From the NCBI GenBank assembly GCA_033763315.1, contig JANRKS010000031.1, positions 192,001 to 256,000 of the forward strand: 64,000 nucleotides of DNA, given 5' to 3'. Shown here one piece after another: positions 16,230-45,458 of the stretch; position 1 is the first letter of the stretch; each line of letters opens with the position of its first letter. The position numbers and the translations under genes are program-made. Below the pieces are notes generated by a model that was given only the letters and a program-made list of their open reading frames with translations, had not been told where the DNA came from and made no database searches. Source of the DNA: Deltaproteobacteria bacterium (GTDB lineage Bacteria > Myxococcota_A > Polyangia > Fen-1088).

Positions 16230-17408
16230 GTGTGCACAATGCAGCGGCGCGGGCGATGCAAGGCAATCTCGGCTGGCGCCCTCGGCGTGCTGCTTGCGCT
16301 TGGCGCGGGGTGCACCAAAACGCAGCCGCGGTTTCCAAAAGCGGTGCATGGGTTCGCCCGCATCGACACGCACATGCACCTGGATCCACGCGCTGTGGAC
16401 CGCACGCTGGCTCTGATGGATCGCTGGGGCATTGATGGCGCCATCAATCTTTCGGGCATGCACCCAGGCCCGCCTCGGCACGCGCTTGAGATGCAACTGG
16501 AGGCGGCGGCCAAGACAAACGGCCGCGTGGCGGTGTTCATGACCCCGTCGTTTGTGGCCGCCGTGAAGAACTTCCCCAACAGCTATGGCGCCGCGATGGC
16601 CGAGCAACTGGCAGAGGGCAAACGGCTGGGCGCCATCGGCTTGAAGATCACGAAGGGCCTGGGCCTGGGTTACCCGGCGCCCGACATGCAAACGCTGTTG
16701 GCCGTCGACGACCCAGGCTTGGATCCTTTGTTCGAGAAGGCGGGCGAGCTGGGCATGCCGGTGGCCATTCACACGGGAGATCCAAAGGCGTTCTGGGAAA
16801 AGCCCGACGAATCCAATGAACGCCTCGATGAGTTGAAGGCCCATCCCGGTTGGTCGCTGCACGGCGAGCCGGTGCCTTCGTGGCAGGAGTTGCTGCTGCA
16901 GTTCGAGCACCGCGTGGCCCGCCACCCCAAAACCACCTTCATCGGCGTTCACTTTGGGAACGCTCCTGAAGAGCCCCAGCGGGTGGCCGCGATGCTCGAC
17001 AAATACCCCAACCTTTTCATCGACACCGCCGCGCGGGTGCCGGCCATTGGCCGCCACAGCGCCGAGCAGATGCGCGCCTTCTTCATCAAGTACCAGGACC
17101 GCATCCTGTTCGCCACAGACACGGCCGTGGGCCCCACGCAGGACGAAATGATGTACGGGTCAAATGGCGCCGAACCGCCCACTTTGGCCGACGAATCCCG
17201 TTTCTTTGAGCAGACCTACAGGTATTTCGAGACCAACGAAAAGAACTTTGAGCACCCGACCGCCATCCAGGGCCGCTGGAGGATCGACGGTTTGGGCCTG
17301 CCAGACGCCGTTCTTAAGAAGCTGTACTTCGAGAATGCCGCCCGCGTCCTTCACTGGCGCCCTGGCCCCCAAAAAAATCCACCCACGCCAAGCTTGACTG
17401 ATCGCTGA
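16230..17408 (+). CDS. Amidohydrolase-family lipoprotein
   Basis: 'IDTHMH', 'PVAIHTGD', 'DRILFATD'; lipobox-like 'LGAGC'. Confidence 0.85.
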   Translation: MCTMQRRGRCKAISAGALGVLLALGAGCTKTQPRFPKAVHGFARIDTHMHLDPRAVDRTLALMDRWGIDGAINLSGMHPGPPRHALEMQLEAAAKTNGRVAVFMTPSFVAAVKNFPNSYGAAMAEQLAEGKRLGAIGLKITKGLGLGYPAPDMQTLLAVDDPGLDPLFEKAGELGMPVAIHTGDPKAFWEKPDESNERLDELKAHPGWSLHGEPVPSWQELLLQFEHRVARHPKTTFIGVHFGNAPEEPQRVAAMLDKYPNLFIDTAARVPAIGRHSAEQMRAFFIKYQDRILFATDTAVGPTQDEMMYGSNGAEPPTLADESRFFEQTYRYFETNEKNFEHPTAIQGRWRIDGLGLPDAVLKKLYFENAARVLHWRPGPQKNPPTPSLTDR

Positions 17409-17433
17409 AAAGAAACATAATCACGCTCCCTAT

Positions 17434-17508
17434 TCCGGAGTAGCTCAGTGGCAGAGCAGTCGGCTGTTAACCGACTGGTCGTAGGTTCGAACCCTACCTC
17501 CGGAGCCA
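17434..17508 (+). tRNA. tRNA-Asn (GTT)
   Basis: Acceptor stem TCCGGAG/CTCCGGA; anticodon stem GTCGG/CCGAC with loop CTGTTAA; GGTTCGAA T-arm; encoded CCA. Confidence 0.98.
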
Positions 17509-17885
17509 TCTGTTCCCGAAAACCGAAACGCCGACCTTGCGGTTAACGCGAGGGGCGCTGTGAGAGAATGATGATTCGTAGTTTTCCGCGGAGTTTTGGA
17601 GAGATTCGATTGCGGCGCTTTTGGGCCCGCGCTCTCCACGGAGAATGAGCCGTGCTTTCGCGGGTGTTGGGGGCGGGGTGGGGCGGTGAATCTCTCTCCG
17701 TTTGCGCATTTCTCGCGCGGAGAAAAATGGAGAGAGTTAACACAGCCGCGCGTTGATCTGGATGTTCTCTGTTGTGGCGCGGATCCGTGGGTGGGCAAGC
17801 GGGACGGGCGTGTCCCGCCTGCAAGTACAGCAGCGACGGTTTTCGAATCGACCTTTCTCGGTTAACGGCCCGAGCGGTTAACAGG
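17509..17885 (+). repeat. Conserved island-end sequence, copy 1 (candidate structured ncRNA or attachment arm)
   Basis: Colinear homology to 32619-32994, including a 40-nt identical block (17519-17558 = 32629-32668) and a 33-nt identical block; several hairpins. Confidence 0.9.
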
Positions 17886-18104
17886 TCGCCGGATTCCCGA
17901 CAGAGGTGCGTTGATCGCTATTCGCGGCGTTGCGAGTGCGCGCGTAAAGGACGTAGAAACCCAGCATCCCTCACAGTGCGGAGTTTTCCCTGTTCGAATG
18001 GCGCCAGCCCTCGGGGGCGCACCTTGTCGCCTAGCGCCGCGCGCACTAGCGGGCTAGCTCGCAAGTAAAACTCATTAGCTACACTCTCGGCAAGAGCCTT
18101 TGAC

Positions 18105-18815
18105 ATGGACGAACCTCACGATGCCCCCGACGCTTTCCCCGCGCTCAATGAAGCTGTGTTCCGAGTTCCTTCCTTATCGCAGCTTCAACCCGAACAAAGG
18201 TTCGCCCACGCTCCCAGATTTTTGCTGCTTTATGGCTCTCTTCGGGAGAGATCATTCAGCCGACTTCTCGTGGAAGAAGCTGCCCGGTTATTGAGGCGGA
18301 TGGGAGGCGAGACGCGTATTTATGATCCGCGCGGTTTACCTCAACCAGATGGCGCACCGAAAGACCACCCCAAGGTGGTTGAGTTGCTGGAGGCTTCATT
18401 GTGGTCCGAAGGCCAGGTTTGGTGCAGCCCTGAACGGCACGGCTCGCCCACCGGAATATTCAAAAGCCAGATCGATTGGCTGCCGCTTGAATCTGGTGGC
18501 GTACGTCCTACGCAAGGGCGCACCTTGGCCGTGATGCAAGTCAATGCTGGCTCGCAATCGTTCAACACTGTAAACGCGCTGCGTGTTCTAGGACGGTGGA
18601 TGCGCATGATCACAATCCCGAATCAATCGTCAGTGCCAAAAGCGTTCGAAGAGTTTGACGCTGCTGGACGGATGAAACCGTCACCCTATTACGATCGCCT
18701 CGTGGATGTGATGGAGGAACTCTATAGGTTCACTGTCCTCACCCGTGAGGTGGCTCCCGCGCTTGTGGACCGATACAGTGAGCGGAAGACGCCCACGACG
18801 CCTGTGAAACTCTGA
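18105..18815 (+). CDS. arsH: Arsenical resistance protein ArsH
   Basis: '[11 protein letters not shown]', '[14 protein letters not shown]', 'GSQSFNTVN', 'IPNQSSV'. Confidence 0.95.
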
Positions 18816-18843
18816 ATTAGCCTTCGTGCGCACGAGTTGCTAA

Positions 18844-18859
18844 ATCGTATTATTCCGAT
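18844..18859. promoter_or_regulatory. Putative ArsR operator upstream of arsC
   Basis: ATCGTATTATTCCGAT, resembles the palindrome at 19313; lies between TTGCTA and TAGGCT promoter-like hexamers. Confidence 0.55.
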
Positions 18860-18871
18860 AGGCTCGCCCGC

Positions 18872-19288
18872 ATGAAGAGCATCCTTTTTCTGTGTGTTGC
18901 CAACTCGGCACGAAGCCAAATGGCCGAGGGTCTGGCGCGGTGGTTGTTCAGCAGCGACGTTTCTGTGCAGAGCGCAGGCAGTGAACCAACCAAAGTGAAT
19001 CCCTATGCCATCGAAGTGATGCGTGAGCTTGGCGTCAATCTAGAAACTCAGCACTCTAAATCGGTTCAGTCGATCGATCCATCTACGGTAGGAACAGTCA
19101 TTACCCTGTGCACCGAAGAGGTCTGCCCCGTCTTCCTGGGCCAGGCGCGCCGCCTGCATTGGCCCATTCCTGACCCGGCCAGCAAAGATGCTTCCCTTCC
19201 GCGTGACGAAATGTTGGCCCGCTTCCGCACCGCCCGGGACACGATTCGCGAAATGCTTACGCGGTTTAAGCGGGAAGAGGGTCTTTAG
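18872..19288 (+). CDS. arsC: Arsenate reductase (LMW-PTP/thioredoxin type)
   Basis: P-loop '[12 protein letters not shown]', 'LCTEEVCP', 'HWPIPDP'. Confidence 0.92.
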
Positions 19289-19312
19289 TTGACGATGAGG
19301 GGTAGTTTGCTA

Positions 19313-19328
19313 ATCGTACTTCTACGAT
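19313..19328. promoter_or_regulatory. Putative ArsR operator overlapping the arsR start
   Basis: Perfect inverted repeat ATCGTA-CTTC-TACGAT. Confidence 0.6.
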
Positions 19329-19668
19329 GACTGAGACCTCGCCTGGAGTTTGTTGTCCCGCCCCCAGTTCGCAACCCGACCTTCGCCCGGTGGAGGGTCC
19401 AGAAGCTGACGAAGAGCTGGCGACCTTGGCTAAGGCCATTGGCCACCCGGCGCGCGTTCAGATCCTGCGGCTTTTGACCACGAAAACTTCGTGCGTATGC
19501 GGTGACATTGTGGACGAGTTGCCTCTGGCCCAGTCAACGGTTTCGCAACACTTAAAGGTGCTTAAGGAGGCCGGGCTTATTCGCGGTGACGTGGACGGTC
19601 CGCGTGTTTGTTACTGCATAGAGCCTCGTGCCATGCGGCGTCTCAAAGTATTGATCGCTGGAATGTGA
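19327..19668 (+). CDS. arsR: ArsR/SmtB transcriptional repressor
   Basis: '[12 protein letters not shown]', 'CVCGDIV', '[12 protein letters not shown]'; N-terminal CC. Confidence 0.93.
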
Positions 19669-19675
19669 ATGAATC

Positions 19676-20764
19676 ATGACTTCTGATGCTGGTTTGCTTC
19701 GAAAACTGTCCTTCCTTGATCGCTATCTGACGCTCTGGATCTTCCTGGCGATGGGTTTCGGTGTGGGGCTGGGTCTTGTTGCGCCGGGCTTCACCCAGGC
19801 GTTGAACAACATGAGTGTGGGAACAACATCGATTCCGATCGCCATTGGCCTCGTTCTGATGATGTACCCACCCCTCGCCAAGGTCCGTTACGAAGAACTA
19901 GGGGAAGTGTTTCGCAACAAGCGGGTGTTGGCGCTTTCTTTGGTTCAAAACTGGGTTATCGGTCCAGTTCTGATGTTCGGCCTTGCGGTGATCTTCCTGC
20001 ACGACAAGCCCGAGTACATGCTTGGCCTGATTTTGATCGGTCTTGCCCGCTGCATTGCCATGGTCATCGTCTGGAACGATTTGGCCAAAGGCGATACTGA
20101 ATATTGCGCAGGTCTGGTTGCCCTTAATTCGATCTTCCAGGTTCTGTTTTTCTCGGTGTACGCGTATTTCTTTGCGACCTTGCTGCCCACGTGGTTGGGC
20201 CTGAAAAGCGCGATCGTGCATATCAGCATCGCAGAGATAGCGAAAAGCGTAGCCATCTACCTTGGCTTGCCCTTCTCGTTGGGGTTCCTGACGCGTAAGG
20301 TGCTCGTCCGGGCGAAGGGGCGACCATGGTACGAAAAGACTTTCGTACCGCGCATCAGCCCTATTACCCTCGCGTCGTTGCTGTTCACGATCGTCGTCAT
20401 GTTTTCGCTCAAGGGCGAAACGATCGTGCAGCTTCCGCTCGACGTACTGCGCATCGCAGTGCCGCTATTCATCTACTTCGTTGTGATGTTTGCGGTGTCG
20501 TTCTTCATGAGTCGACGCGTGGGCGCCGATTACAAGCAAACGGTCACACTTTCTTTCACTGCTGCGTCCAACAACTTCGAGCTGGCCATCGCGGTTGCAA
20601 TTGCCAGCTTTGGCATTCACAGCGGCGCAGCACTCGCGGCCGTCATTGGTCCCCTGGTGGAGGTGCCGGTGCTCATCGGGTTGGTAAACGTCGCCTTGTG
20701 GGCGCAAAAACGCTACTTCCCAAGAGCGGCTGTGGTAGCGCCTGCGTGCGCGGTCCCCCAATAG
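19676..20764 (+). CDS. acr3: ACR3-family arsenite efflux transporter
   Basis: '[13 protein letters not shown]', 'MMYPPLAKV', 'ARCIAMV', '[11 protein letters not shown]', 'GPLVEVPVL'. Confidence 0.96.
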
Positions 20765-20856
20765 TCAATGTCAAACAATCAACATCGGATGCAGGTTTGA
20801 AGAAGAGAGTTGATGTAAAAGCAGCGTGCCTATTTATGTGACGGTATGCTCTGTAC

Positions 20857-21480
20857 ATGGACGAGTGCTGCGGTGGGAAAGCAGATGAACTTGCTGCGCT
20901 AGATCGTGGGGCTCGTCGGCGCGTGTTGCAGATTGTGTTGGCCATCAATGTGTTGATGTTCGTGGTGGAGTTTGTCGCCGGACTGTCTGCTCGCTCCTCA
21001 GCGCTAATGGCTGACAGCGTTGACATGCTGGGCGATGCTTTCGTCTATGTGCTGAGCCTTTATGCCCTCAACCGGTCGGCAGCTTGGAAAGGGGGTGCCG
21101 CGATCGCGAAGGGCGGTGCCATGCTGTTTCTGGGACTGGGGATCGCCGTCGAAGTCGTTGACAAAATTCGTCACGGAGTGGTGCCGACGTCCAGCCTCAT
21201 GGCGGGCTTTGGCGCGCTGGCCCTGTTTGCAAACCTAACTTGTCTTGCTCTGCTGTGGGGGCACCGGCGCGCAGATGTCAACATGAGCAGCACATTCGAG
21301 TGCTCACGGAACGACGTTCTTGCGAATTTAGGAGTCTTGATCGCCGCCGCAGGCGTCTCACTGACGGGGCGAGCCTGGCCAGATATTCTAGCGGGGGCAG
21401 TGGTAGCAGCGCTCTTTCTGCGATCGGCTGCACGCGTGATCGCACGAGCTTGGCCGGTGTTTCGCAATCGCCTAGCGTAG
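20857..21480 (+). CDS. CDF-like cation transporter lacking the C-terminal domain
   Basis: 'SSALMADSVDMLGD', 'CSRND', 'WPD'; N-terminal CC. Confidence 0.85.
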   Translation: MDECCGGKADELAALDRGARRRVLQIVLAINVLMFVVEFVAGLSARSSALMADSVDMLGDAFVYVLSLYALNRSAAWKGGAAIAKGGAMLFLGLGIAVEVVDKIRHGVVPTSSLMAGFGALALFANLTCLALLWGHRRADVNMSSTFECSRNDVLANLGVLIAAAGVSLTGRAWPDILAGAVVAALFLRSAARVIARAWPVFRNRLA

Positions 21481-21497
21481 TGCTCGTGTGGCCGATG

Positions 21498-22589
21498 CTA
21501 GAGCGATGGTTGTTGTTGGGATAGGCAGTGAAGGGTGCCGAGGCCGAGCACGAGATCCGTAGCGTGAATCCCCACGACTGGGCGATCAGAGATCAGTTCT
21601 GCGATGATACCCAGGGCGGCTCTGTCCGCGGGGTCGTTAAACGTTGGCACAAGAACCGCAGCGTTACAGATGTAGAAATTGGCATAGCTGGCCGGCAGCC
21701 GTTGACCGCGAAAGAAAAGCGGCGCGGGCATTGGAAGGCGAACGACTTGCGGGCGACTACCGTCTTGAAGCCGAGCTTGTTCAAGCCGCTCACGGTTCTC
21801 TTCAAGCGGCCGGTGATTCGCATCTGAGCCGTCAGCCTCTTGGCACAGAACTATCGTGGTCGGACTTACAAAGCGGGCAAGGTCATCAACGTGGCCGTGG
21901 GTGTCATCCCCTGCGATGCCGTTGCCCAACCAAATCGTGTTTGGCGCGCCTAAGCATTCGCGGAAAGTAAGCTCCCAATCCGACTTGCTAAATCCTGGGT
22001 TCCGGACTTGAACATTAGGATCAAGCAGGCATTCCTCAGTGGCCAAGATTGAACCCTTCCCGTTCACATCAATACTGCCGCCCTCAAGAACCACATCGCC
22101 CGCAGACGACGGGAACAGGTCTTGAGATCGAAAGGAGCGCAGCTCAAGCGCCTGCGCCGCCAACCGGGGAATGGTGTAATCTTTATGAAACTCAGGATAT
22201 TTTGCCCAACCGTTGAAGCCGAAGTGCGCCACTGCTAAATCCGGAGCGGTTCCGTCCTTCTGCACAAAGATGGGACCAAAATCTCGAATCCAACTGCGGT
22301 CCGTAGGCCAACGCATCCAATCGATTGCGGATTCATTGACTCCAACCGATGCAATCACGCTTTTAGCGTGGGCCTCCGTTTTGTCGTCGTTCACTAACAG
22401 TGCAACACGTTCGGCAACCGCCACCCGTTTAATGATCTCCCCGTAAACCCAGCGAATCGAGCTGATTTTACCTGGCCAATCGCTTCGTCGATGAGGGAAC
22501 GCCAGCCAAGTGGCATCGTGTGCATTCCACTCCGCGGGGATCGCAAACCCTGAGCGACTGGCGGTTTTCGGTGTAGCAAAGGGGGGCAT
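21498..22589 (-). CDS. Agmatine/peptidylarginine deiminase family protein
   Basis: 'PAEW', 'WIRDFGP', 'LEGGSIDVNG', 'DDTHGHVD', 'SYANF', 'LHCLSQQQP'; TGATG overlap with the ATPase gene. Confidence 0.92.
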   Translation of the reverse strand: MPPFATPKTASRSGFAIPAEWNAHDATWLAFPHRRSDWPGKISSIRWVYGEIIKRVAVAERVALLVNDDKTEAHAKSVIASVGVNESAIDWMRWPTDRSWIRDFGPIFVQKDGTAPDLAVAHFGFNGWAKYPEFHKDYTIPRLAAQALELRSFRSQDLFPSSAGDVVLEGGSIDVNGKGSILATEECLLDPNVQVRNPGFSKSDWELTFRECLGAPNTIWLGNGIAGDDTHGHVDDLARFVSPTTIVLCQEADGSDANHRPLEENRERLEQARLQDGSRPQVVRLPMPAPLFFRGQRLPASYANFYICNAAVLVPTFNDPADRAALGIIAELISDRPVVGIHATDLVLGLGTLHCLSQQQPSL

Positions 22590-25090
22590 CAACTGCGCAC
22601 GCCCGGGTTGGCCGCTCTTTGATCTTTATAAGCTAAAAGCCGCAACGCGTTTACGACCACAAGCAGCGTCGAGCCTTCGTGAAGCGCCACCGCAACGCCA
22701 ATGCCGGCAAATCCGAAAATTGTTGCGGGGATCAAGATCGCCACCATGCCAAGGCTGGCCCAAAGGTTCTGGCGAATGATGCTACGGGAAGCGCGGCTTA
22801 AGCCCACGGCGAAAGGCAGAGCGCGTAAATCGTCGGCCATTAGAGCGATGTCTGCCGTCTCCAAGGCGACATCCGATCCGCCAGCACCCATCGCAATCCC
22901 CACGGTGGCATTGGCCATCGCAGGCGCATCGTTGACGCCATCACCCACCATCGCTACACCCGTTGACGAACCCGCCAGCTGCACTATCACGGCAACCTTC
23001 TGCTCTGGCAGTAAGTCGCCGCGCGCCACGCGAATGCCCACTTGTCCTGCAACAGCATCGGCCACGCTTTGGTTGTCGCCCGTCAGCATGATGGATTGCT
23101 TGATACCCAGCCGGTGCAATTCCGATATCACCTCTCGTGCGGTATCGCGAGGGGTGTCCATAAGGCCCAGCACGCCCAAGAAACGGTTGGCGGATTTAAC
23201 TACCATGACCGTTCGGCCGTTTGACTGCAGCTTTCCGATGGCCTCTGTAACTTCGTCAGGCAGAGCTCCGTCGTTAGTGAAAAGGCCTGGCTTGCCCAGC
23301 AAGACGGTCGCGCCGTCAATTTCGGCTTTAACACCAAAGCCCACAAGCGCCTTAACGTTAAGCGCGCGCAGGCGGCCAATTTCTGCTGGCAGTCGGCTTG
23401 CCGCTCCATTCACAATGGCCGCAGCTAAGGGGTGATCGGACTGGCTTTCAACCGCGACCGCGGTTTGCATCAGTTCGGTTTCGGTCGTGCCTTGAGTAGG
23501 CAACACGTCGGTAAGCTGAGGCTTGCCTTCGGTAAGTGTTCCCGTTTTGTCAAAAGCAATCGCAGTGATCGCCCCCAACGTTTCGAGGTGTGCACCGCCC
23601 TTGATGAGAACGCCACCGCGCGCCGCACGCGCGACGCCCGAAAGCACCGCGCTAGGCGTGGCGATCGCTAAAGCGCAAGGACTGGCCGAGACCAGCACAG
23701 CCATCGCGCGGTAGAAACTGTGTGCGAATGTCTCGTCGATGACAAACGGGGCAAACAGCAACAAGACGACCACGCCAAGAATGACGGGAACAAAAACACG
23801 TTCAAATCGATCGGTGAACCGCTGCGTTGCAGACTTTTGCGTTTCGGCCTCGGCAACCATCTTTACGACGCGTGCCAAGGTGCTGTCGGCGGCGGCTTTT
23901 GTAACCAGAATCGTTAGCGCCGCAGCACCGTTTATCGTACCTGCGAAAACACGGTTCTCAGGAGCCAACGCAGACGCGTTTGCCGCCGCTACCTTTGCAT
24001 CGGGCACGGGAATCTTATCGACGGGAACACTTTCGCCTGTGATGGGTGCTTGATTGACGCTACTTGAGCCCGCGACTACAAAGCCATCGGCGGCAATACG
24101 TGTGTTGGGCTTGACCATGATTGTATCGCCAACGACCAGTTCCGATACCGGAACTTCCTTTATGCCGTGCGAAGGTCCGAGCCGCAGGGCTGTCTGGGGT
24201 ACTAGTTGCGAAAGCGCTTCAATTGCTTTTCGTGCCCGCCCCATGGCGTAGCCTTCAAGCGCGTGGCCAAGAGTAAACAAGAATAGCAACAGAGCGCCTT
24301 CGAACCATTGCCCTAGCACCGCGGCGCCCACAGCGGCAAACAACATTAGAAAGTCAATTTCAAAGCGCTTGGCTCGAAGGGCCACCGCGACTTCTTGCAC
24401 TGTGAACCACGCGCCCAGGACATAGGCCACCGCGAACAGCGCTGTGGGAACAATCGCCGGTACACTCCCTCTTCCCAGGCCCCACCCGACAGCCGTCAGG
24501 GCGCCGCAGCCGAGGCTAAACACCAATTCTGAACGCTCACCGAACGGACCGCCGTGTTCGTGCTCATGCGCATGTGCGTTTTCCTTGCTGTGGTCGTGGT
24601 CGTGATCATGGTCATGACCAGATGCTCGTGGGGGAGCCGCGGGGGTTTTCGCCGCCGAAATCCCTTCCGCGCCAGCAACCGCCATCAAGGATTCGCGGGA
24701 CGTCTGCTTCGGATCGAACTCGATGTAAAGCCGACGCGCACCGAACGCAATGCCTGCATGCAACACACCAACTTGTCTGGCGAAAACCCCTTCGACAAGG
24801 TTGGCCTGACGCTCGTGGCGTAGACCAACAACAGGGATGGAAAGATGCTCGAATCTTTCGGAAAGTTCGGCGCCTGCTCGGTGCACAACGGCCTGCACAT
24901 CCTGCAGGCGGACGATGGCAGGGTCGTAGTGAAGGCAAAGCTTGGTTTTCGCCGTGTCTGCGGAATCGATGTGGGCATCCACAATTCCAGACCGACCGCG
25001 AACCGTGTCAAGCAGGCGCTTGACGCACGCGTCGCAATCTGCCGCGTCCTGTGGAAGGATGATTTGCAGATCGAGTTTGTGTTTATTCAT
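22589..25090 (-). CDS. Heavy-metal P1B-type ATPase (SPC type, P1B-4-like)
   Basis: TGES, SPC, DKTGT, GDGVNDAPA, HEGST; CxxC and His-rich N-terminus. Confidence 0.95.
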   Translation of the reverse strand: MNKHKLDLQIILPQDAADCDACVKRLLDTVRGRSGIVDAHIDSADTAKTKLCLHYDPAIVRLQDVQAVVHRAGAELSERFEHLSIPVVGLRHERQANLVEGVFARQVGVLHAGIAFGARRLYIEFDPKQTSRESLMAVAGAEGISAAKTPAAPPRASGHDHDHDHDHSKENAHAHEHEHGGPFGERSELVFSLGCGALTAVGWGLGRGSVPAIVPTALFAVAYVLGAWFTVQEVAVALRAKRFEIDFLMLFAAVGAAVLGQWFEGALLLFLFTLGHALEGYAMGRARKAIEALSQLVPQTALRLGPSHGIKEVPVSELVVGDTIMVKPNTRIAADGFVVAGSSSVNQAPITGESVPVDKIPVPDAKVAAANASALAPENRVFAGTINGAAALTILVTKAAADSTLARVVKMVAEAETQKSATQRFTDRFERVFVPVILGVVVLLLFAPFVIDETFAHSFYRAMAVLVSASPCALAIATPSAVLSGVARAARGGVLIKGGAHLETLGAITAIAFDKTGTLTEGKPQLTDVLPTQGTTETELMQTAVAVESQSDHPLAAAIVNGAASRLPAEIGRLRALNVKALVGFGVKAEIDGATVLLGKPGLFTNDGALPDEVTEAIGKLQSNGRTVMVVKSANRFLGVLGLMDTPRDTAREVISELHRLGIKQSIMLTGDNQSVADAVAGQVGIRVARGDLLPEQKVAVIVQLAGSSTGVAMVGDGVNDAPAMANATVGIAMGAGGSDVALETADIALMADDLRALPFAVGLSRASRSIIRQNLWASLGMVAILIPATIFGFAGIGVAVALHEGSTLLVVVNALRLLAYKDQRAANPGVRS

Positions 25091-25100
25091 TGTGGTTCGC

Positions 25101-25817
25101 TTATGTGCTCATCTCGATAACGGTCAAACAAAGAAAGCCCGCGAAGAAGGAAGCGCTACTCCACGCGGTTTCCTTCACTTCGTGAGCTTCAACCAAAAGC
25201 TCTTCGACGACCAAGAACAGCAAGGCAGCCAGGCCAAACGACAGTGCGATGACAAGGCCTGAATGAGGTAAAAGACCGAGTAGTCCTGCGCCAACTCCGG
25301 TTCCCATCAAAAGCAGCACGCAGAGGGCGGCTAAGTTAAGCATCACGCGACCTTTCGAGACGCCATTGCGCAGCAGGGTGGTTGACGTTGAAAGTCCTAA
25401 AAACATGAGTTCCAAAGTTAGCGCAACGGTCAACAGCAAACCCGTTTTCTGACCGGCGGCGAACCCCAGACCAATCAGGGCGCCGTCGAGAAAGATGTCG
25501 ATAGCAACCGTGATCAGGAGCGACGTGGGCGACTTTTTGCCTTCACTCTCATTGCCCCTTTCGCTCAGTGCACGGATGACAAGCATTGCGAAAACTCCTC
25601 CAGCGAATCCTACGATCAGCTCAAACGCAGAATGCGATGCTTTGATCTCGGGAAGAATTTCGCCCGCCGCTGCCGACAGAACGACACCCGCTGCGAAATG
25701 CTGAATGAAACCTTGGGCTTTTTCACCAGGCGTTTTACGCAGGGCAACCAAGCCTGCAATCAGCGTTGCGATACAGGGAAAGGCCGCATGGCCGAGCGCT
25801 TGGAAGAGTACATTCAT
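25101..25817 (-). CDS. ZIP-family-like metal transporter
   Basis: 'QHFAAGVV', 'DIFLDG', 'EELLVEAHE'; multiple TM helices. Confidence 0.8.
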   Translation of the reverse strand: MNVLFQALGHAAFPCIATLIAGLVALRKTPGEKAQGFIQHFAAGVVLSAAAGEILPEIKASHSAFELIVGFAGGVFAMLVIRALSERGNESEGKKSPTSLLITVAIDIFLDGALIGLGFAAGQKTGLLLTVALTLELMFLGLSTSTTLLRNGVSKGRVMLNLAALCVLLLMGTGVGAGLLGLLPHSGLVIALSFGLAALLFLVVEELLVEAHEVKETAWSSASFFAGFLCLTVIEMST

Positions 25818-28800
25818 GTTGGCTTCCTTTTCGAACCTCGTTGAAAATTGTGTGCCACCTCGTAGGCCGTTGGAAAGAACAGCAACGTCAAAGCGGTTGC
25901 GGTGATAAGTCCGCCTATCACCACCGTTGCCAAGGGCCGTTGAACTTCACTTCCAGCCGAGTGCGATAAAGCCATGGGAACAAACCCTAATGCCGCCACG
26001 AACGCCGTCATCAGAACAGGCCGCAAGCGCATGCGAGCGGCCGACGCGATGGCCTCGGCCGGCGGCGTGCCCTTAGCCTCGAGTTGCAGGCAGAACGAGA
26101 CGAGTACAAGGCCATTGAGCACGGCGACACCGAATAGAGCGATAAAACCGACGCCAGCTGAGATGCTAAACGGCATATCGCGGAGCCATAGGAAAAGAAC
26201 TCCTCCGATAGCCGCGAAGGGTATGTTGATAAACACCAGCAAGCTGGGTTTAACCCGATCGAACGCCAACCACAGCAAAAACAGAATCAACGCCAACGCC
26301 AAGGGAACAACAATCATCAGTCGAGCGCGTGCGGAGGCGTAGTTTTGAAACTGCCCGCCCCATTCGATGCGGTAACCAGTAGGCAAATGGACCTTGGCAT
26401 TTAAAGCCATACGGGCGTCCTCAACCGCCGAAACCACATCCCGGCCGCGCACGTTGAATTCAACGATCGTTCGCCGCGATTGTTTGTCGCGGTTCACCAG
26501 CACGGGCCCACTTTCGATCGCCACCTCCGCCACGTCACCGAGCGGCACCATCTGGCCCGAGCTTGATTTAAGCGGAAGCGAGCGAAACACATCGAGATTG
26601 CCTTTAAACTCGGCGTTGCTCCGAACCACCATGCCAAATCGCCGATCGCCTTCGAACACAGTGCCAACGTTGCGACCAACAGCGATGGTTTCTGTCACCA
26701 TATTGACGTCCTGCACGGTCAAGCCGTAGCGTGCAAGCCGGGCGCGGTCCGGGCGCACCCGCAAATATGCGAGGCCCGCCGTTTGTTCCGCGCGCACATC
26801 GACGACGCCGTCAATACCCTGAAACGCCGTTTGCACCTGTGTGCCCAGCTCCTGCAGTGTTGCTAAGTCGGGGCCGTAGATCAGTGCAGCCGCATCTGAG
26901 CGCACACCAGCCACAAGTTCGTTGGTACGCATCTGAATTGGCTGCGACACCGCGAATGATACTTCCGGTACGTCCTTTTCCACGGCTGCAGAAATCTCCT
27001 CACCTAACGCCAGCTTGGTCAATCCGTCGCGCCACTTGCTGGTGGGTTTTAAAGTGATGTAGACATCGGACTGTTCGATGCCCATCGGATCTGTTGCCAC
27101 TTCTGGTGCTCCGTTGCGTGCCACGACATGCTCGATCTCTGGGATGTGAGCCAATGAGCGCTCGATGCGCACGTCCATGGCCACTGACTCTGTCAGCGCC
27201 ACGCCGGGTAGCCGTCGGACCTCAAGTAGCAGATCGCCTTCGTCCAGTTGCGGAACAAATTCCGCACCTAGGCGGGTCGACAAACCTGCTCCCAAGGCCA
27301 GCAGTGCCAATCCGACGCCCAAGGTTCGCGAAGGCCTGGCGAGAGCCGTCTTGAGTAAGGGCAGGTAGCCTCGCCGCAACTGCCGCATGACCCACGTTTC
27401 GTGCTCGTTCCTTTCTGGTCGCAGAAAATAGCTGCATAAAACAGGCACTACAGTCAGCGACAAGATGAAAGCGCCGAGCAGCGCGAACAACACCGTTTGC
27501 GCCATAGGATGGAAAAGCTTTCCTTCGACACCCCGCAATGCCAAAATTGGTAGGTACACAATGCCGATGATCGCTTCGCCAAATACGCTGGCGCTGCGCA
27601 CCTCAATGGCTGCATCTTGGACGATCACCAATCGCTCGTCGGCGGTCGGGGCTTGGCCGCGTGCCGCGCCCACTTCTGTTAAACGACGGACGGCATTTTC
27701 AACGATGATAACCGCCGCGTCCACAATCAGGCCGAAGTCAACGGCACCCAGACTCATAAGGTTTCCAGAGGCGCCGGTCATTCGCATGATCATCACTGCG
27801 AACAGCATCGATAGCGGGATGGTCACCGCCACTATCAAACCAGCGCGTAGGTTTCCCAACAACACGAGCAACACGACAACAACCAAGGCGGCGCCTTCGG
27901 CAAGATTCCGTGCCACTGTGCGAATCGTGCGATCGACCAGTGCCGCGCGATCGTAGAAGGGTTCAACGGTTATGCCCTTTGGAAGCGTGGGGCGAAGCTC
28001 ATCAAGGCGCGCCTTCACAAGGTCAGTAACCACGCGGGAGTTTTCACCTATCAGCATTAGCGCCACACCAACAACCACTTCCCCTTGGCCATCCATTGAG
28101 GCGGCCCCTCGGCGTAAGCGCGCACCGAAGCGTACGTCTCCCACATTGGCAATAGTGATAGGAACGCCTTGGGGCGTTGCACCTACCACTACAGATTTTA
28201 GATCCTCAAGGCTCTTTACAAGCCCCAAAGTCCCGATCACCAGCTGTTCGCGGTTGTGTTCAATGTAACCCCCGCCGGCATTTGCGTTGGTTCGTTCAAG
28301 AGCGCTGACGACTTCTTGTAGAGATAATCCGGCGGCCTGCAAACGCTTGGGATCAACGACGACTTGGTACTGGCGCTCTTCGCCGCCAAAACTGTTGACC
28401 TCGACGATCCCGGGAACCGTTCGAAGCTGCGGCCCAATGTACCAGTCGAGCGTCTCTTCGAGCTCCATCAAGGAATGGCCCTTGCCGCGCACAACGAATT
28501 GATAGATCTCGCCTAAGCCGCTTGCGATGGGGCCGATCTGGGGGCGCCCATAAGCCTCGGGAATGTCGGCTTCGGCTTCGCGTACGCGCTCGCTGACCAT
28601 TTGCCGTGCGAAGTAAATGTCCGTTCCTTCGTCAAACACGATGGTCACCACGGACAGTCCGTACTTGGTTAGCGAACGCACTTCCGTCACCTTTGGAATG
28701 CCGGCCATCGCGCGTTCGACCGGCACGGTCACGTATTGCTCCATCTCGACCGGCGACAGCGCGGGCGCCGAGGTGATCACCTGTACTTGGACATTGGTGA

Positions 28801-28930
28801 TGTCAGGCACGGCATCAATCGGAAGGCCCACGGCGGAAGCCAGCCCCGCGATCACGAAAAGAATCGTTGCCATCAAAACCACCACGCGGTTGTGCAGCGA
28901 CCACGAGACCATCTTGCTGAGCAGAAACAT
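25814..28930 (-). CDS. czcA: CzcA/CusA-family heavy-metal RND permease
   Basis: 'LPIDAVPDITNVQVQV', 'DFGLIVDAAVIIVEN', 'RLRPVLMT'; 1038 aa. Confidence 0.93.
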   Translation of the reverse strand: MFLLSKMVSWSLHNRVVVLMATILFVIAGLASAVGLPIDAVPDITNVQVQVITSAPALSPVEMEQYVTVPVERAMAGIPKVTEVRSLTKYGLSVVTIVFDEGTDIYFARQMVSERVREAEADIPEAYGRPQIGPIASGLGEIYQFVVRGKGHSLMELEETLDWYIGPQLRTVPGIVEVNSFGGEERQYQVVVDPKRLQAAGLSLQEVVSALERTNANAGGGYIEHNREQLVIGTLGLVKSLEDLKSVVVGATPQGVPITIANVGDVRFGARLRRGAASMDGQGEVVVGVALMLIGENSRVVTDLVKARLDELRPTLPKGITVEPFYDRAALVDRTIRTVARNLAEGAALVVVVLLVLLGNLRAGLIVAVTIPLSMLFAVMIMRMTGASGNLMSLGAVDFGLIVDAAVIIVENAVRRLTEVGAARGQAPTADERLVIVQDAAIEVRSASVFGEAIIGIVYLPILALRGVEGKLFHPMAQTVLFALLGAFILSLTVVPVLCSYFLRPERNEHETWVMRQLRRGYLPLLKTALARPSRTLGVGLALLALGAGLSTRLGAEFVPQLDEGDLLLEVRRLPGVALTESVAMDVRIERSLAHIPEIEHVVARNGAPEVATDPMGIEQSDVYITLKPTSKWRDGLTKLALGEEISAAVEKDVPEVSFAVSQPIQMRTNELVAGVRSDAAALIYGPDLATLQELGTQVQTAFQGIDGVVDVRAEQTAGLAYLRVRPDRARLARYGLTVQDVNMVTETIAVGRNVGTVFEGDRRFGMVVRSNAEFKGNLDVFRSLPLKSSSGQMVPLGDVAEVAIESGPVLVNRDKQSRRTIVEFNVRGRDVVSAVEDARMALNAKVHLPTGYRIEWGGQFQNYASARARLMIVVPLALALILFLLWLAFDRVKPSLLVFINIPFAAIGGVLFLWLRDMPFSISAGVGFIALFGVAVLNGLVLVSFCLQLEAKGTPPAEAIASAARMRLRPVLMTAFVAALGFVPMALSHSAGSEVQRPLATVVIGGLITATALTLLFFPTAYEVAHNFQRGSKRKPT

Positions 28931-30120
28931 CAGTCTTCCTCACCGAACGTGCTCTTTAATACGGTGCTCTTAATGCTGAAAACACCGGCAACGACCACCC
29001 TTTCACCTTCGCGCAGGCCATTAAGGATCTCGACACGGTTGCCTCCCATCACGCCAAGGGTGACGGGGTGCATCTCATAGTCACCGTCTTCGTGCAAAAC
29101 GAACACCACGTCCTTTTCCGCCACACGAGTTACTGCGGACAACGGTACAACAACCCGTTTCGTGGCTTCATTTGCGCTGCCCGTAACTATGCGGGCTGTG
29201 CCGAAAAGACCGATCTTCAGGAGATCGTCGTGGTTGCGCACCACGATGCGCGCGGTGACGGTTCGAGCAACTGTATCGAGTCGCTTGCCGACGGATTCAA
29301 CAACACCTGAAAACTGCTCCTCAGGGTACCCGTTGAGACGTATGTCAACGGTGGCGCCTTGCTTGACCAACGCAAGATCCTTCTCGAATATCCGCCCCAA
29401 GAAATAGGCGCGATCGAGATCGCCTATGACCGCCAGCACGTGGTCGGCGGGGATGAATTGGCCCGGCACCGCGTCTCGCGACAAAACGAAGCCCGATATT
29501 GGCGTGCGCACAATCAGTCGCACGCTTGCGCCGGCCGTTGCAAAGTCTTGCGTCCCGAAGGAAAGCAGCGTTTGGCGGGCCGCAGCCGTCTGTGCTTCCA
29601 AAGCTGCAGCTTCGGCTTCTGCTGCCGAGGCTTCCTGTCCAGACGCTAAGGCGTTTGATGCAAGGCTTTTTAGGCGCTGCGCATTGAGCCGCGCCGAACT
29701 TGCGCGCCCGCCTGCCGAAGCAACTTCGGCGCGGGCTCGCGCCAGTTCAGGAGATTCGAGCACGGCAACGATTTGTCCCGCCTTGACGCGTTCGCCTTCT
29801 TTGACCTTCACATCGACGACCCGACCTGCGACCCGCGCTGATAACTGAGCTGACTTATCGGGATCCGTTGCGATCTCGCCCGTGAGGTCAACGGTTGACG
29901 GAATGGTATCGAGGGTCACCGGCTGCGTGACGATTCCTGCGGCGCGCACGACGTCCGCCGTCAGCCGCACCTTCGATGGTAGCGGTTCATGTTCCTTTTC
30001 ATCCTCGTGCGCTGCAGCCGGTTGTGCGGCTTCCGTGGGCACCGGTTCGGGCGGGCGCTTGCCACTACACGCGCCATAGAACAGCATCGAGATCACGATT
30101 GGCAACACGGTCACTCTCAT
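28930..30120 (-). CDS. czcB: RND periplasmic adaptor (CzcB-like)
   Basis: Lipoprotein-like N-terminus, lipoyl and hairpin segments, 'GLREGERVV'; adjacent to czcA. Confidence 0.85.
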   Translation of the reverse strand: MRVTVLPIVISMLFYGACSGKRPPEPVPTEAAQPAAAHEDEKEHEPLPSKVRLTADVVRAAGIVTQPVTLDTIPSTVDLTGEIATDPDKSAQLSARVAGRVVDVKVKEGERVKAGQIVAVLESPELARARAEVASAGGRASSARLNAQRLKSLASNALASGQEASAAEAEAAALEAQTAAARQTLLSFGTQDFATAGASVRLIVRTPISGFVLSRDAVPGQFIPADHVLAVIGDLDRAYFLGRIFEKDLALVKQGATVDIRLNGYPEEQFSGVVESVGKRLDTVARTVTARIVVRNHDDLLKIGLFGTARIVTGSANEATKRVVVPLSAVTRVAEKDVVFVLHEDGDYEMHPVTLGVMGGNRVEILNGLREGERVVVAGVFSIKSTVLKSTFGEED

Positions 30121-31430
30121 TGGCCTTCTCCCAAAACAGCGGTCACGAGCGTTCCTGTAACGCGATGAAGTTCAACCCACGCAAGCGCTTGTTCACGCCG
30201 CACTTGTATTTCCGATTGCAATAACTCGATGAGTCCGCGTTGCCACACCAGCGCTTCATTCAGTGGAAGTTGGTTCATTGAGATGCCGGCTTTGATTGCT
30301 GCAAGGTCGGCTCGGGCCCGCGCAATCAAAGCGGGGTCAAAGAGTGCGAGCGCCGCGGTCTTGGCTCGCTGCAGTGCCAGCGCGTTTGCTACTTCCCGCT
30401 GCACACGGCGGCGCACAAGCTCCACCGAACTTTCACTGGCGCGAATCTGCCCTTGCAGTTCACTGATGTCACCCGCGCGAGACCGGCCAATAGGGGCCGG
30501 CAAGGGCAGGGGGAATGACAACCCTAAGCCAAGGATGCGATCGTTGATCTCCCCCCGCTCCGCAAACACAGAAACCGTCGGGTTGGGCATGCGTTCACGG
30601 CGCACAAGGGCGAGCCGCGATTCCAACACCACCCGTTCCATGTCTGCGGCTGCAAGTTCGCCGCGCAGCCGTAGGGCATCGTTAAGCGCCTTCGCTTCGT
30701 CCATGTCACCGACTGCAGGAGGCGTCAGAACCTGCGGGACGATAAGTGAGCCTGCGGTGTCACTGAGCGATACACGCAAATCCGTCAGTGCTTGCGACAG
30801 GTTTCGTTCGGCCTCAAAGCGAATCAAGGCAAGCCGAATGGCCTCGGCCCTCGCCACGTCAGCTTCAACCCCAGACATAACTGATTCGGCAGCCCGCCCT
30901 TCAACCAGCCTGCTTAGCGCTTCAGCGATACCAAAGAGCTCTTCCGCTAAGCCCAACGACTCGCGTGCCGCGACGGCGTTGAAGAACACGCTGAGCACGT
31001 TCGAAGCCACATCTTGTTCGGCAACCCCAACGCGCCTGATTTGGGCGCTTACCTCGGCGTCAGCGGCCCGCAATCTCAGGCCGCGCTGGCCAGCGATCTC
31101 GAATTGTTGCGCCAGCGACAGGCTCCAGTTGAGCGCCTGGACATTCTCGGGAGCCGGCCGTTGGCGTTGGGATAAGGAGGCAGACACGACGGGGTTGCTA
31201 GGCAACCACGTGTTCGCGGAAAGCCTTCGACCGGACCCCGCCGCCAACTGCGCGCGCGCCGACGCTACATCTGGGCTTGTGGACAGGGCACACTCAACGA
31301 CCGTCTTGGTCGTGAGTAGTTTGGGGCAACTTGCTGGAGTTTTTGATGTGTCAATCACTGCATGCGCACCAACGGTTCGTGCGCATGCCAAGGCGACAGC
31401 AAAGGCTGCCGCAGGCAAAACCCGTTTCAT
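30117..31430 (-). CDS. czcC: TolC-family outer membrane factor (CzcC-like)
   Basis: Signal peptide; 'QQFEIAGQRGLR'; GTGA overlap with czcB. Confidence 0.82.
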   Translation of the reverse strand: MKRVLPAAAFAVALACARTVGAHAVIDTSKTPASCPKLLTTKTVVECALSTSPDVASARAQLAAGSGRRLSANTWLPSNPVVSASLSQRQRPAPENVQALNWSLSLAQQFEIAGQRGLRLRAADAEVSAQIRRVGVAEQDVASNVLSVFFNAVAARESLGLAEELFGIAEALSRLVEGRAAESVMSGVEADVARAEAIRLALIRFEAERNLSQALTDLRVSLSDTAGSLIVPQVLTPPAVGDMDEAKALNDALRLRGELAAADMERVVLESRLALVRRERMPNPTVSVFAERGEINDRILGLGLSFPLPLPAPIGRSRAGDISELQGQIRASESSVELVRRRVQREVANALALQRAKTAALALFDPALIARARADLAAIKAGISMNQLPLNEALVWQRGLIELLQSEIQVRREQALAWVELHRVTGTLVTAVLGEGQ

Positions 31431-45448: not shown

Positions 45449-45458
45449 GGCACTTCTC

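Follow-up and report, generated by a model that had tools for sequence, protein, structure and literature searches.

A duplicated non-coding element marks the tRNA-side end of two islands that are stacked at a single tRNA-Asn gene. It forms the terminal module, on the tRNA side, of an island lineage that inserts at the extreme 3' end of tRNA-Asn and, judged from its sequence, resembles a shortened form of the leader standing before a serine-recombinase cassette in many planctomycete islands. We refer to the whole 64,000-nt stretch of DNA analyzed here as the window, and positions are given within it.

Two element copies at the sole tRNA-Asn gene

Element copy 1 (E1, 17509-17885) and element copy 2 (E2, 32619-32994) lie on the + strand as collinear duplicates of about 375 nt each. 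A first-pass annotation of this DNA had described two colinear copies at these positions, with shared identical blocks of 40 and 33 nt and with each copy starting at a tRNA end. Our analysis bore out all three statements: E2 matches E1 with 79% identity across positions 1-374 of 377 nt (E 2.8e-81), both blocks are present in both copies, E1 abuts the CCA of tRNA-Asn(GTT), and E2 abuts a diverged tRNA remnant ending at 32618. In the 7.6-Mb assembly, a sequence search returned E1 and E2 as the only matches to the element, and a profile search agreed. The features of the window are as follows.

17394-17421, + strand: sigma-70-like promoter of tRNA-Asn, TTGACT-16-CATAAT (10/12 consensus matches)
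17434-17508, + strand: tRNA-Asn(GTT); B side of attL
17509-17885, + strand: E1, tRNA-side end of island 1
17509-17534, unstranded: candidate P' half-site of the recombinase site, suggested by the same-genus divergence point and TTCG/CGAA words
17530-17558, + strand: hairpin 1, a 7-bp stem with a 4-bp extension; GTTAAC box 1 (17542-17547) in the loop
17598-17637, + strand: stem 2, GGAGAG/CTCTCC, around an inner GC hairpin
17695-17741, + strand: stem 3, TCTCC.../...GGAGA, with a variable loop that is always 21 nt; GTTAAC box 2 (17736-17741) immediately after
17799-17818, + strand: stem 4, a GC-rich 8-bp palindrome
17855-17885, + strand: paired GTTAAC boxes 3 and 4 (17861, 17877)
17886-32553, unstranded: island 1 cargo, with an arsH-like FMN reductase, LMW phosphatase (arsC type), ArsR, ACR3-type carrier, CDF, P-type ATPase, ZIP, RND efflux trio and response regulator
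32554-32559, unstranded: right-end GTTAAC box of island 1, lying some 60 nt to the left of the junction
32575-32618, + strand: diverged tRNA-Asn 3' remnant, P arm of island 1, retaining the T-loop word and GAGCCA
32619-32994, + strand: E2, tRNA-side end of island 2
32995-60329, unstranded: island 2 cargo, with unknown ORFs, a VgrG / PAAR-like / DUF2169 / Imm71-72 cluster, FHA-GGDEF, HDOD and XRE-type HTH
60330-60999, + strand: non-coding stretch 5' of DUF2924, weakly similar to leaders at other loci
61000-61488, + strand: DUF2924 protein (PF11149, E 1e-43)
61488-63089, + strand: large serine recombinase (LSR; Resolvase + Recombinase + Zn_ribbon_recom)
63086-63586, + strand: ORF166, the conserved third cassette gene; a ParB-type HTH is a lead only

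Two islands stand in tandem at the tRNA-Asn gene at 17434-17508, the only one in the assembly, and a recombinase is missing from island 1. Island 1 spans 15 kb and carries metal-resistance genes. Island 2 spans 28 kb or more and probably carries DUF2924, the LSR and the ParB-HTH-like ORF at 61000-63586; the assembly holds a single LSR and a single DUF2924, and the LSR lies 28 kb downstream of E2. The right end of island 2, or a third tRNA remnant, was not found by pattern, BLAST and regex searches reaching about 40 kb outward and genome-wide, and the assignment of E2 and the LSR cassette to one island is therefore tentative. ORFs downstream of the cassette gave no information on the island end. 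No tyrosine integrase was found among the scanned ORFs of the window.

The element had also been called island-borne, and same-genus relatives agree with this. Two of them (G001 and G002) have the upstream amidohydrolase-tRNA-Asn context in common with the window and part from it exactly at the tRNA 3' end, which argues for carriage by an island rather than by the chromosome; synteny with relatives 3' of the tRNA was not found. The element is thus located at the host-island junction, where the same-genus genomes diverge and where, both in the window and on one metagenome contig (L009), a second copy sits behind a tRNA remnant. Contigs of relatives from environmental DNA runs (four runs examined) span the amidohydrolase, the tRNA and the element.

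Copies of the element were found in none of 60 relatives and in none of 88 other genomes of the order. The 19-nt word of hairpin 1 (17535-17553) had no exact match in GTDB species-representative genomes or in IMG/VR, and six matches in metagenomes. Two of these six (L005 and L007) have only this 19-mer in common with the element and were dropped as chance or poor assembly. The same element stands on four metagenome contigs, each with other downstream genes: it follows tRNA-Asn in L006, L008 and L010 and a remnant in L009. It is split by an IS91-like insertion in L006, and in L009 and L010 cargo lies behind the element copy, as for E1 and E2.

Our structure alignment has six rows for five homologues of the element, one homologue being represented by two pieces. 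The first 45 nt of the element are identical across all six rows. Conservation is clustered above chance: in an alignment of the four full-length copies, the longest invariant run covers 33 columns, compared with at most 22 in 2000 shuffles. Invariant runs adjoin nearly randomized spacers, a patchy pattern that is common to five lineages with differing cargo, and similarity among all copies stops just past box 4. The four full-length copies have no open frame in common and no codon periodicity (61/46/52 variable columns per codon phase), which rules out a coding reading and agrees with the annotation of the element as non-coding.

Leaders of serine-recombinase cassettes in other genomes

Our comparison set comprised 80 LSR loci from other genomes, 65 of them with sufficient flank. 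DUF2924 is found upstream of the LSR in 79/80 loci, and 76/80 have an ORF166 homologue downstream of it. This cassette family is widespread in Planctomycetota and also occurs in MAGs labelled Acidobacteriota, Gemmatimonadales and others. At 14 of the 65 loci, a tRNA (Asn, Met or Arg) is followed by a non-coding leader of 0.5-1.3 kb and then by DUF2924-LSR, with the tRNA on the same strand and no more than 2.5 kb upstream, and with the LSR cassette 1.0-2.3 kb behind the tRNA; at a few other loci, 3-10 kb separate the leader start and the cassette. This class of tRNA-to-DUF2924 leaders is defined in the present analysis and corresponds to no published family. Direct repeats marking attR were not found inside the 10-kb flanks of 21 LSR loci. 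One genome (G005) has a leader-like start and no LSR in a 96%-complete assembly, which speaks against the reading that we favor below.

An unbiased count of 6-mers in 12 leaders versus 173 kb of flanks placed GTTAAC at the top, with 24-fold enrichment (18 observed versus 0.8 expected, 9/12 loci), followed by GTCTCT, a box-overlapping word and TCTCTG; TCTCTC was enriched about 7-fold. GTTAAC occurs at +33 to +36 behind 7 of 22 LSR-linked tRNAs and GTTNAC behind 13 of 22, compared with 0 and 2, respectively, among 46 other tRNAs of the source genome in a wider window of +25 to +45; there are close kin among the 22 and the 12 loci (L031/L042, L060/L072, L041/L044 and L096/L097), and these counts overstate independence. 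Further GTTAAC sites of related leaders are found in the middle of the leader and, in many cases, 25-60 nt ahead of DUF2924. The word was present within -120 to +15 of the DUF2924 start at 32/77 loci, mostly 25-60 nt upstream, and the window has a box at 60975, 25 nt upstream of the DUF2924 start codon. In the contexts that we inspected, the boxes are asymmetric, with G at the left and a purine at the right, and mostly in one orientation. GTCTCT words form direct repeats in some leaders and inverted repeats in others, and protein-binding words therefore fit better than RNA stems.

At the level of short words, the element is shown to carry what the leaders carry and in identical order: GTTAAC at about +34, TCTC/GAGA words and two modules. 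It has the leader layout, with GTTAAC at +34 after the tRNA end in both E1 and E2, and hairpin 1, which holds this box, is invariant among all five homologues. Four of the 12 GTTAAC words in the 64 kb of the window are inside E1, which holds them together with five TCTCTC/GAGAGA words in 382 nt and has a box module at its distal end. The modules that the leaders have in common are a mid-leader GGAGAG-GTTAACAGG and a terminal TCTC-GGTTAACGG-GAG; the stretch at 17855-17885 resembles the latter as it occurs 5' of DUF2924 at other loci. The element is also collinear with G005 and with one LSR locus (L025), including a common 15-mer around a box. These common, collinear words uphold the tie to a DUF2924/LSR island family that had been proposed earlier. 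Significant homology of the element to other leaders was not found (best nhmmer E 0.67, best BLAST E 0.03-0.35), and the link therefore rests on short words and their order. DUF2924 does not stand directly after E1 or E2, where cargo follows. A 9+5-nt likeness of 60335-60370 to the first hairpin of L025 was set aside as being at chance level.

The element could be a vestigial leader that remained once island 1 had lost the cassette and once cargo had displaced it in island 2. The copies would then be alike through recent common descent or gene conversion and not through a present function. Such decay would suit an island 1 without a recombinase, the leader-like start of G005 without an LSR, the insertion tolerated in L006 and the rarity of the sub-lineage (0/88 genomes of the order; no 19-nt word in GTDB species representatives). 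The patchy conservation described above argues against it, with its 33-column invariant run in the four full-length copies and a pattern common to five lineages with differing cargo, as do the invariant first 45 nt in six rows. We consider a vestigial origin quite unlikely.

Stems, folding and transcription of the element

The five stems proposed in the first-pass annotation all exist, with 95.7% of 184 cells paired in the six rows, versus 40-59% once the 3' partners are shifted by 1-3 columns. The further claim, that exceptions to Watson-Crick pairing in the four local stems are G-U on the + strand and that substitutions preserve pairing, stood only in part: the stems are kept, but with more copies A.C and other mismatches (8 unpaired cells) appear on the + strand too. 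The RNAalifold energy is far under that of column-shuffled alignments (0/100 shuffles as low), which is true of both strands. Fold z-scores versus column shuffles are -4.8 for the + strand and -4.5 for the - strand, and thus a strand-specific fold signal was not found for the element. Covariation of the named stems is no better than in shuffles, 418/500 of which reach the score (five homologues, low power). A double change occurs in 1/39 pairs and 26/39 pairs never vary in the six rows; the RNAalifold covariation term is +2.58, and compensatory pairs number 3/63. The annotation had deduced selection on a folded + strand molecule, which does not survive covariation at the level of shuffles and equal folding of the minus strand, and the folded-RNA reading of the element is unsupported.

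The annotation had recognized no described RNA family in the element, and neither did Rfam: a tRNA alone passes the gathering threshold in the whole window, and at E <= 1 the sole extra match in 17400-18000 is to a model of a plant miRNA and scores 19 bits versus a 90-bit cut-off. The loop of hairpin 1 had been thought to echo the tRNA-Asn anticodon loop. We discarded this idea because the same GTTAAC also sits behind tRNA-Met genes of related islands, at +35/+36.

Read-through transcripts of the element from the tRNA are likely, although a search for sequencing runs that contain the stretch listed no RNA run. No canonical terminator, that is, a stem followed by a T-run, was found in 17300-18200, and therefore transcription from the tRNA-Asn promoter would enter E1; E2 has one weak terminator match inside the element. 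Related leaders begin, behind the tRNA, with one or two hairpins whose GC-rich stems run into T-runs, similar to the intrinsic terminators known behind tRNAs, whereas E1 lacks a stem with a T-run. Sigma-70-like promoters were found in none of E1, E2, the stretch before DUF2924 and 11/12 leaders.

The element might be read as a + strand RNA made together with the tRNA from the tRNA-Asn promoter. Such an RNA could be a structured leader or an ncRNA or could act in processing or as an insulator, and its GGUUAACR words, of which some lie in hairpin loops, would be sites for an RNA-binding protein. The good promoter at 17394-17421 with the likely read-through, the lack of internal promoters in the leaders, the kept stems with 95.7% of cells paired, and loops of constant length and variable sequence would all suit such an RNA. 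So would the first hairpins of relatives, whose UUCG- or GNRA-like loops and T-runs resemble RNA-level terminators, and the excess of G.U (about 10 pair positions) over A.C (4) on the + strand, a biased count in that the stems were chosen on that strand. Set against this are the missing covariation (one double change in 39 pairs, a score equal to shuffles and an alifold term of +2.58), the folding of the minus strand (z -4.5 versus -4.8) and the absence of an Rfam match even at E <= 1. In addition, E2 and the L009 copy lie behind a dead remnant without a tRNA promoter, the L006 element is interrupted by the IS91-like insertion, and word arrays reach places that are unlikely to be part of a tRNA transcript, such as the box at 32554, left of the remnant. 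We regard an RNA function as unlikely.

The element, which is hairpin-rich and retained by an island without mobility genes of its own, could instead act as single-stranded DNA, for example as a transfer origin or as a single-strand origin that comes into play when a conjugative element mobilizes the excised island. A TAAG-containing stretch after stem 4 may loosely resemble MOBQ-type nick regions. However, no relaxase or coupling-protein gene was found among the scanned ORFs of the window, and the occurrence of the same words directly before the DUF2924 start codon (32/77 loci) fits regulation or recombination better than transfer. We judge a role as single-stranded DNA to be highly improbable.

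A candidate DNA end module and its known counterparts

The reading that we favor, at a little short of an even chance, is that the element is a cis-acting end module of double-stranded DNA, which combines an attL half-site with a box array for island proteins. The first ~25 bp would be the P' half of the recombinase site. TTCG and CGAA words are equidistant from the CC of CCA, in a symmetry that is weak (5/9) and could cover only the first ~25 nt. The remainder would act as double-stranded DNA, its oriented GGTTAACR boxes and TCTC/GAGA repeats being bound by an island protein, for which the ParB-HTH-like ORF166 and DUF2924 are candidates, and such binding may tie cassette control to the recombination site. 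With a retained array, islands that lack a recombinase, island 1 among them, could be handled in trans. The hairpins would then arise incidentally, from binding words that are palindromic or inverted and, in relatives, from tRNA terminators. The single box orientation and the many G.U pairs on the + strand run counter to the double-stranded reading in that they also fit an RNA.

Regarding the candidate binders, ORF166 resembles ParB HTH domains, which is a lead only. The DUF2924 model has a pLDDT of 82 and no PDB fold match below E 0.3 (best Foldseek E 0.31); a PDB sequence search with DUF2924 returned designed coiled coils only, and NCBIfam holds no model for DUF2924 or ORF166.

A bolder extension of the end-module reading, which we hold to be unlikely, is that the LSR works with a long accessory arm: oriented GGTTAACR boxes, which would extend from a crossover located at the 3' end of the tRNA as far as the DUF2924 start codon, would be assembled by a cassette protein into an intasome-like complex. 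Boxes would also occur on the other island end (at least one), the binder would be the ParB-HTH-like or the DUF2924 protein, and the complex would set the direction of recombination and autoregulate the cassette. Islands that have the arm only (island 1 and possibly G005) would be excised and integrated in trans, which, if true, would explain stacked arrays at one essential tRNA gene.

LSRs are prized in genome engineering and are thought to need two short sites and no accessory DNA; we know of no characterized LSR system that works with a long accessory arm. An LSR with DUF2924, a ParB-HTH-like gene and a long, word-rich leader on the tRNA side would be a different design and, if this is true, DUF2924 would gain its first testable role. 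The finding is ordinary if the element is no more than a relic or a simple regulatory leader. In the literature collection searched, the papers that mention DUF2924 all concern Wolbachia genomes. Among the papers listed on LSRs at tRNA-linked genomic islands and their attP sites, none dealt with the present system, and a search for integrative serine-recombinase elements at planctomycete tRNA genes gave no match.

Islands that integrate at tRNA genes, such as the P4-type islands with a tyrosine integrase, have attL/attP regions and are known to form tandem arrays. The islands described here are like them in their insertion at a tRNA 3' end, the decayed tRNA 3' copy at the inner junction, the tandem stacking and the conserved non-coding end that adjoins the junction. 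Unlike in P4-type islands, the sole recombinase is an LSR with DUF2924 and a ParB-HTH-like partner, and the conserved end is ~375 nt long and made of GTTAAC and TCTC words. Characterized LSRs (phiC31, Bxb1, A118) use att sites of ~50 bp and no accessory DNA, and a published abstract puts the Bxb1 site at <50 bp. The LSR of the window belongs to the same recombinase class (Resolvase + Recombinase + Zn ribbon), and the first ~25 bp of the element could, with the T-arm, make an imperfect inverted repeat around a central dinucleotide, as in LSR att sites. Unlike those minimal sites, the element has ~350 more conserved bases, and its boxes recur before the recombinase operon.

Two other systems offer partial parallels. 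SCC and recombinase-less pseudo-SCC cassettes, which are moved by Ccr serine recombinases, stack at rlmH, and the present islands are likewise stacked at one chromosomal site, some without a serine recombinase of their own. Here, the target is a tRNA gene instead of rlmH, and a long non-coding end takes the place of the short SCC boundary repeats, which lack a long leader. The LSR of the window is not a Ccr, because its matches to the CcrB, CcrA and CcrC models are far below the cut-offs (172 bits versus 900). The CIMEs beside ICESt1/ICESt3 of Streptococcus thermophilus are att-flanked, lack recombination genes and undergo tandem accretion; island 1 similarly lacks recombination genes and is joined in tandem to an element equipped with such genes. 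In contrast, the CIME system uses a tyrosine integrase, and trans-mobilization of island 1 is a proposal. The contents of the two islands illustrate that metal-resistance and VgrG/PAAR cargo can pile up at a genome's sole tRNA-Asn gene.

Two copies of the element and their islands

The window contains a single tRNA gene, tRNA-Asn(GTT), called by both ARAGORN and Rfam, which is the sole tRNA-Asn among the 47 tRNAs of the assembly (G000; 7.6 Mb in 40 contigs, with the window at G000:C31:192001-256000). The non-coding element occurs twice, as had been described from sequence: copy 2 (E2) aligns with copy 1 (E1) colinearly over 374/377 nt at 79% identity (E 2.8e-81), and the 40-nt and 33-nt identical blocks and all five stems named in the first-pass annotation are present. 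Sequence and profile searches of the assembly found no third copy. A decayed tRNA 3' half, which retains the T-loop word and GAGCCA, precedes E2.

Features of the tandem islands, in window coordinates
17434-17508, + strand: tRNA-Asn(GTT)
17509-17885, + strand: E1, directly 3' of the tRNA-Asn CCA
Between E1 and E2: island 1 cargo (arsH-like FMN reductase, arsC-type phosphatase, ArsR, ACR3-type carrier, CDF transporter)
Between E1 and E2: island 1 cargo, rest (P-type ATPase, ZIP protein, RND efflux trio, response regulator)
32619-32994: E2
After E2: island 2 cargo (unknown ORFs; VgrG / PAAR-like / DUF2169 / Imm71-72 cluster; signalling proteins; XRE-type HTH)
61000-61488, + strand: DUF2924 gene, cassette gene 1
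61488-63089, + strand: large serine recombinase (LSR) gene, cassette gene 2
63086-63586, + strand: ORF166, cassette gene 3

The layout is that of two tandem islands: the tRNA, E1 with cargo 1, the tRNA remnant, E2 with cargo 2 and, further on, the cassette. No recombinase gene is found among the genes between E1 and E2, and the LSR and DUF2924 genes of the window are the only ones in the assembly. In SCC or CIME-type arrays, elements that lack a recombinase are likewise stacked and use that of a neighbour; island 1 resembles them in its stacking and in having no recombinase gene. Because the right end of island 2 was not found by pattern and BLAST searches or among the downstream ORFs, we consider it only likely that a single island comprises both E2 and the cassette.

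G+C drops at the tRNA from ~0.61-0.65 to 0.56-0.59 and recovers only some kb beyond the window. Same-genus and same-family relatives retain the amidohydrolase-tRNA-Asn context and match the window upstream of the tRNA 3' end but not beyond, departing from it exactly at that point. The element was absent from all five relatives checked; in one of them, G002, the tRNA 3' end is followed by a plain terminator hairpin, and in another, G005, by a leader-like start. We conclude that the element belongs to the islands, as first proposed, and that the crossover is at or next to the CCA.

We note that island 1 (18105-32373) is a compact metal-resistance island that includes an LMW phosphatase, an RND/MFP/OMF trio and a PAD_porph-type deiminase, and no mobility gene. 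Island 2 encodes, within 39978-54061, VgrG (48359-50821), a PAAR-like toxin-domain protein (44603-45508), DUF2169 and an Imm71 + Imm72 immunity-domain protein, a type VI-style effector/immunity set borne by a mobile island.

Homologues in metagenomes

The 19-nt word of hairpin 1 had no exact match in GTDB species genomes or in IMG/VR, and six in metagenome contigs, four of which are true homologues (L006, L008, L009 and L010). The element directly follows tRNA-Asn in L008 and L010, the latter flanked by an amidohydrolase on the upstream side and by DinB and an IS on the downstream side. In L006 the element, again behind tRNA-Asn, is disrupted by genes for a tyrosine integrase and an IS91-like transposase, and in L009 a different decayed tRNA remnant and the element are followed by unrelated genes. 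Since the downstream genes differ in every homologue, the element is an end module that stays conserved while the cargo varies. The first 45 nt past the CCA are nearly invariant across all alignment rows, and conservation is patchy beyond chance. Two of the four environmental DNA runs compared (X1 and X2) yielded a contig that runs from the amidohydrolase through the tRNA into the first part of the element; a further run, X4, yielded short contigs matching the element.

The insertion in L006 (258-2318) adjoins GTTAAC box 2 and encodes the tyrosine integrase with an IS91-family (Y2_Tnp) transposase. The remaining 19-mer matches, L005 and L007, were dropped because they have nothing in common with the element beyond the 19-mer. 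In L005 (7100-7480), the 19-mer is followed by a TTTCCGC..GTTTTCGAGGG stretch loosely like the next block of the element; this contig has many homopolymer runs and no long ORFs, and may be a badly assembled homologue.

The DUF2924-LSR cassette and its leaders

We compared 80 loci with LSR relatives (42-49% identity to the window LSR), mostly from Planctomycetota. DUF2924 lies directly upstream of the LSR in 79/80 and an ORF166 homologue downstream in 76/80. An upstream flank of 2.5 kb or more was available for 65 loci, 14 of which have a same-strand tRNA (Asn, Met or Arg) 1.0-2.3 kb before the LSR; the tRNA is followed by a non-coding leader, 0.5-1.3 kb long except for a single locus with 1.8 kb, and then by DUF2924-LSR. 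Seven further loci have a like leader start behind a tRNA 3-10 kb upstream, with genes intervening.

An unbiased 6-mer count of 12 leaders against their flanks ranked GTTAAC, hereafter the box, first (18 seen versus 0.8 expected, 24-fold, 9/12 loci), followed by GTCTCT (15-fold), a word overlapping the box, and TCTCTG (13-fold); TCTCTC was also enriched (7-fold). These leader-enriched words are those that recur in the element, and four of the 12 GTTAAC sites in the window lie inside E1. At +33 to +36 after the tRNA, GTTAAC occurs behind 7/22 LSR-linked tRNAs and GTTNAC behind 13/22, versus 0 and 2, respectively, for the 46 other tRNAs of the window's genome over a wider span (+25..+45). E1 and E2 both have GTTAAC at +34. 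A box at this position is also found behind tRNA-Met genes, and hence the hairpin 1 loop is no echo of the Asn anticodon, as had been suggested. The GGAGAG-GTTAACAGG module lies at ~+203 to +241 in leaders and at +228 in E1, and paired boxes are spaced 16-31 nt apart. A box also occurs within -120..+15 of the DUF2924 start in 32/77 loci, mostly 25-60 nt upstream (25 nt in the window). Several of the LSR loci counted here are close kin, so that the counts overstate independence.

Profile and BLAST comparisons gave no significant homology between the element and the LSR-locus leaders. The best bridge is G005, a member of the same family, whose leader-like start behind tRNA-Asn is colinear with the element over ~270 nt and has in common with it a 15-mer around a box. 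The element lies at the island junction, as an attL half would, and has the words of the leader class as defined in the present analysis; it shows no Rfam match, no covariation above shuffles, no canonical terminator in E1 and no significant homology to other leaders. Leaders and element have the same words in the same layout, which ties the element to the DUF2924/LSR islands; it forms the tRNA-side end of islands in this family.

Several smaller features of the leaders were observed. The G005 region (L019, G005:C48, 208-620) contains two hairpins, one of them terminator-like, as well as GTTAAC at +36 and two GGTTAACAG boxes; its 96%-complete assembly contains no LSR homologue. A conserved GGCTCAGTGTGTC word, absent from the window's own cassette, lies just upstream of the pre-DUF2924 box in many loci among L020-L099, ~40-70 nt before the DUF2924 start. 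Leader pieces are repeated, inverted, upstream of tRNA-Met in L060 (1219-1350 and 2207-2252), and L088 (2470-2583) has a direct copy of one just before DUF2924; such repeats point to duplication of leader fragments or to an accumulation of old island ends. The related tRNA-Asn islands L021 and L086 have a common leader, before which L021 has ~70 extra bases next to the tRNA with a hairpin, a GTTAAC box and a terminator-like hairpin; this first module is therefore optional.

Folded RNA or double-stranded DNA

The first-pass annotation had argued for selection on a folded + strand molecule. In a six-row alignment, its stems are paired in 95.7% of cells, versus 40-59% when slid, but their covariation score is at shuffle level (reached by 418/500 shuffles), with 26/39 pairs invariant and a double change in one pair only, among five sequences of low power. 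RNAalifold gave a covariation term of +2.58, with compensatory pairs at 3/63, all in one rearranged L010 hairpin. Fold z against column-shuffled alignments was -4.8 on the + strand and -4.5 on the - strand; the lower absolute energy of the + strand recurs in its shuffles and is therefore a composition effect. The inverted repeats are real, and the fold signal has no strand specificity. Adding copies brings A.C and other mismatches onto the + strand (8 unpaired cells), beside the G-U pairs first described. The long-range pair is present in the window element but gains no support from L010 or L009. The Rfam scan returned no match, in keeping with the claim of no described RNA family, and the copies share no reading frame. 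The tRNA-Asn promoter is good and E1 has no canonical terminator, so read-through into E1 is likely.

The folded-RNA reading is thus unsupported by these five sequences, which have little power. An RNA leader would also fit the shared direction of the boxes, the absence of internal promoters in leaders and the G.U bias; we regard an RNA role as unlikely. That the element is a relic seems to us slightly less likely still, and a single-stranded DNA role very improbable.

We tentatively favour a DNA box array. The recombinase site would be made up of the first ~25 bp, the tRNA T-arm and the acceptor; the words TTCG and CGAA stand at equal distances from the CC of the CCA, but this symmetry is weak. 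The other ~350 bp would act as double-stranded DNA carrying oriented GGTTAACR boxes and TCTC/GAGA repeats, an array that a candidate island protein may bind. Such binding would link the island junction to cassette control, and the array would be what a cassette-less island has to retain in cis for movement in trans. In its favour, boxes recur at the junction, in the middle of the leader, immediately ahead of the DUF2924 ribosome-binding site and at the other island end (32554). The GTCTCT words are direct repeats in some leaders and inverted in others, a variability more in keeping with binding words than with RNA stems. Counting against the box array, characterised LSRs are not known to need accessory DNA, DUF2924 has no fold match, and the box orientation, promoter and G.U observations would equally fit an RNA leader.

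Minimal LSR sites are one close comparison for the element. Another is the att-proximal arms of tRNA-integrating islands, which are alike in forming an end next to a tRNA but use tyrosine integrases, whereas the window has an LSR. In a survey of abstracts we found no description of the cassette-plus-leader design; the element would be of greater interest if it were indeed an accessory arm.

A candidate box binder is ORF166, whose predicted similarity to ParB HTH domains is a lead only. The AlphaFold model of the window DUF2924 (61000-61488, pLDDT 82) has no significant PDB neighbour, and comprises four helices on the N-terminal side and, beyond a disordered linker, a C-terminal part with four strands and a helix.
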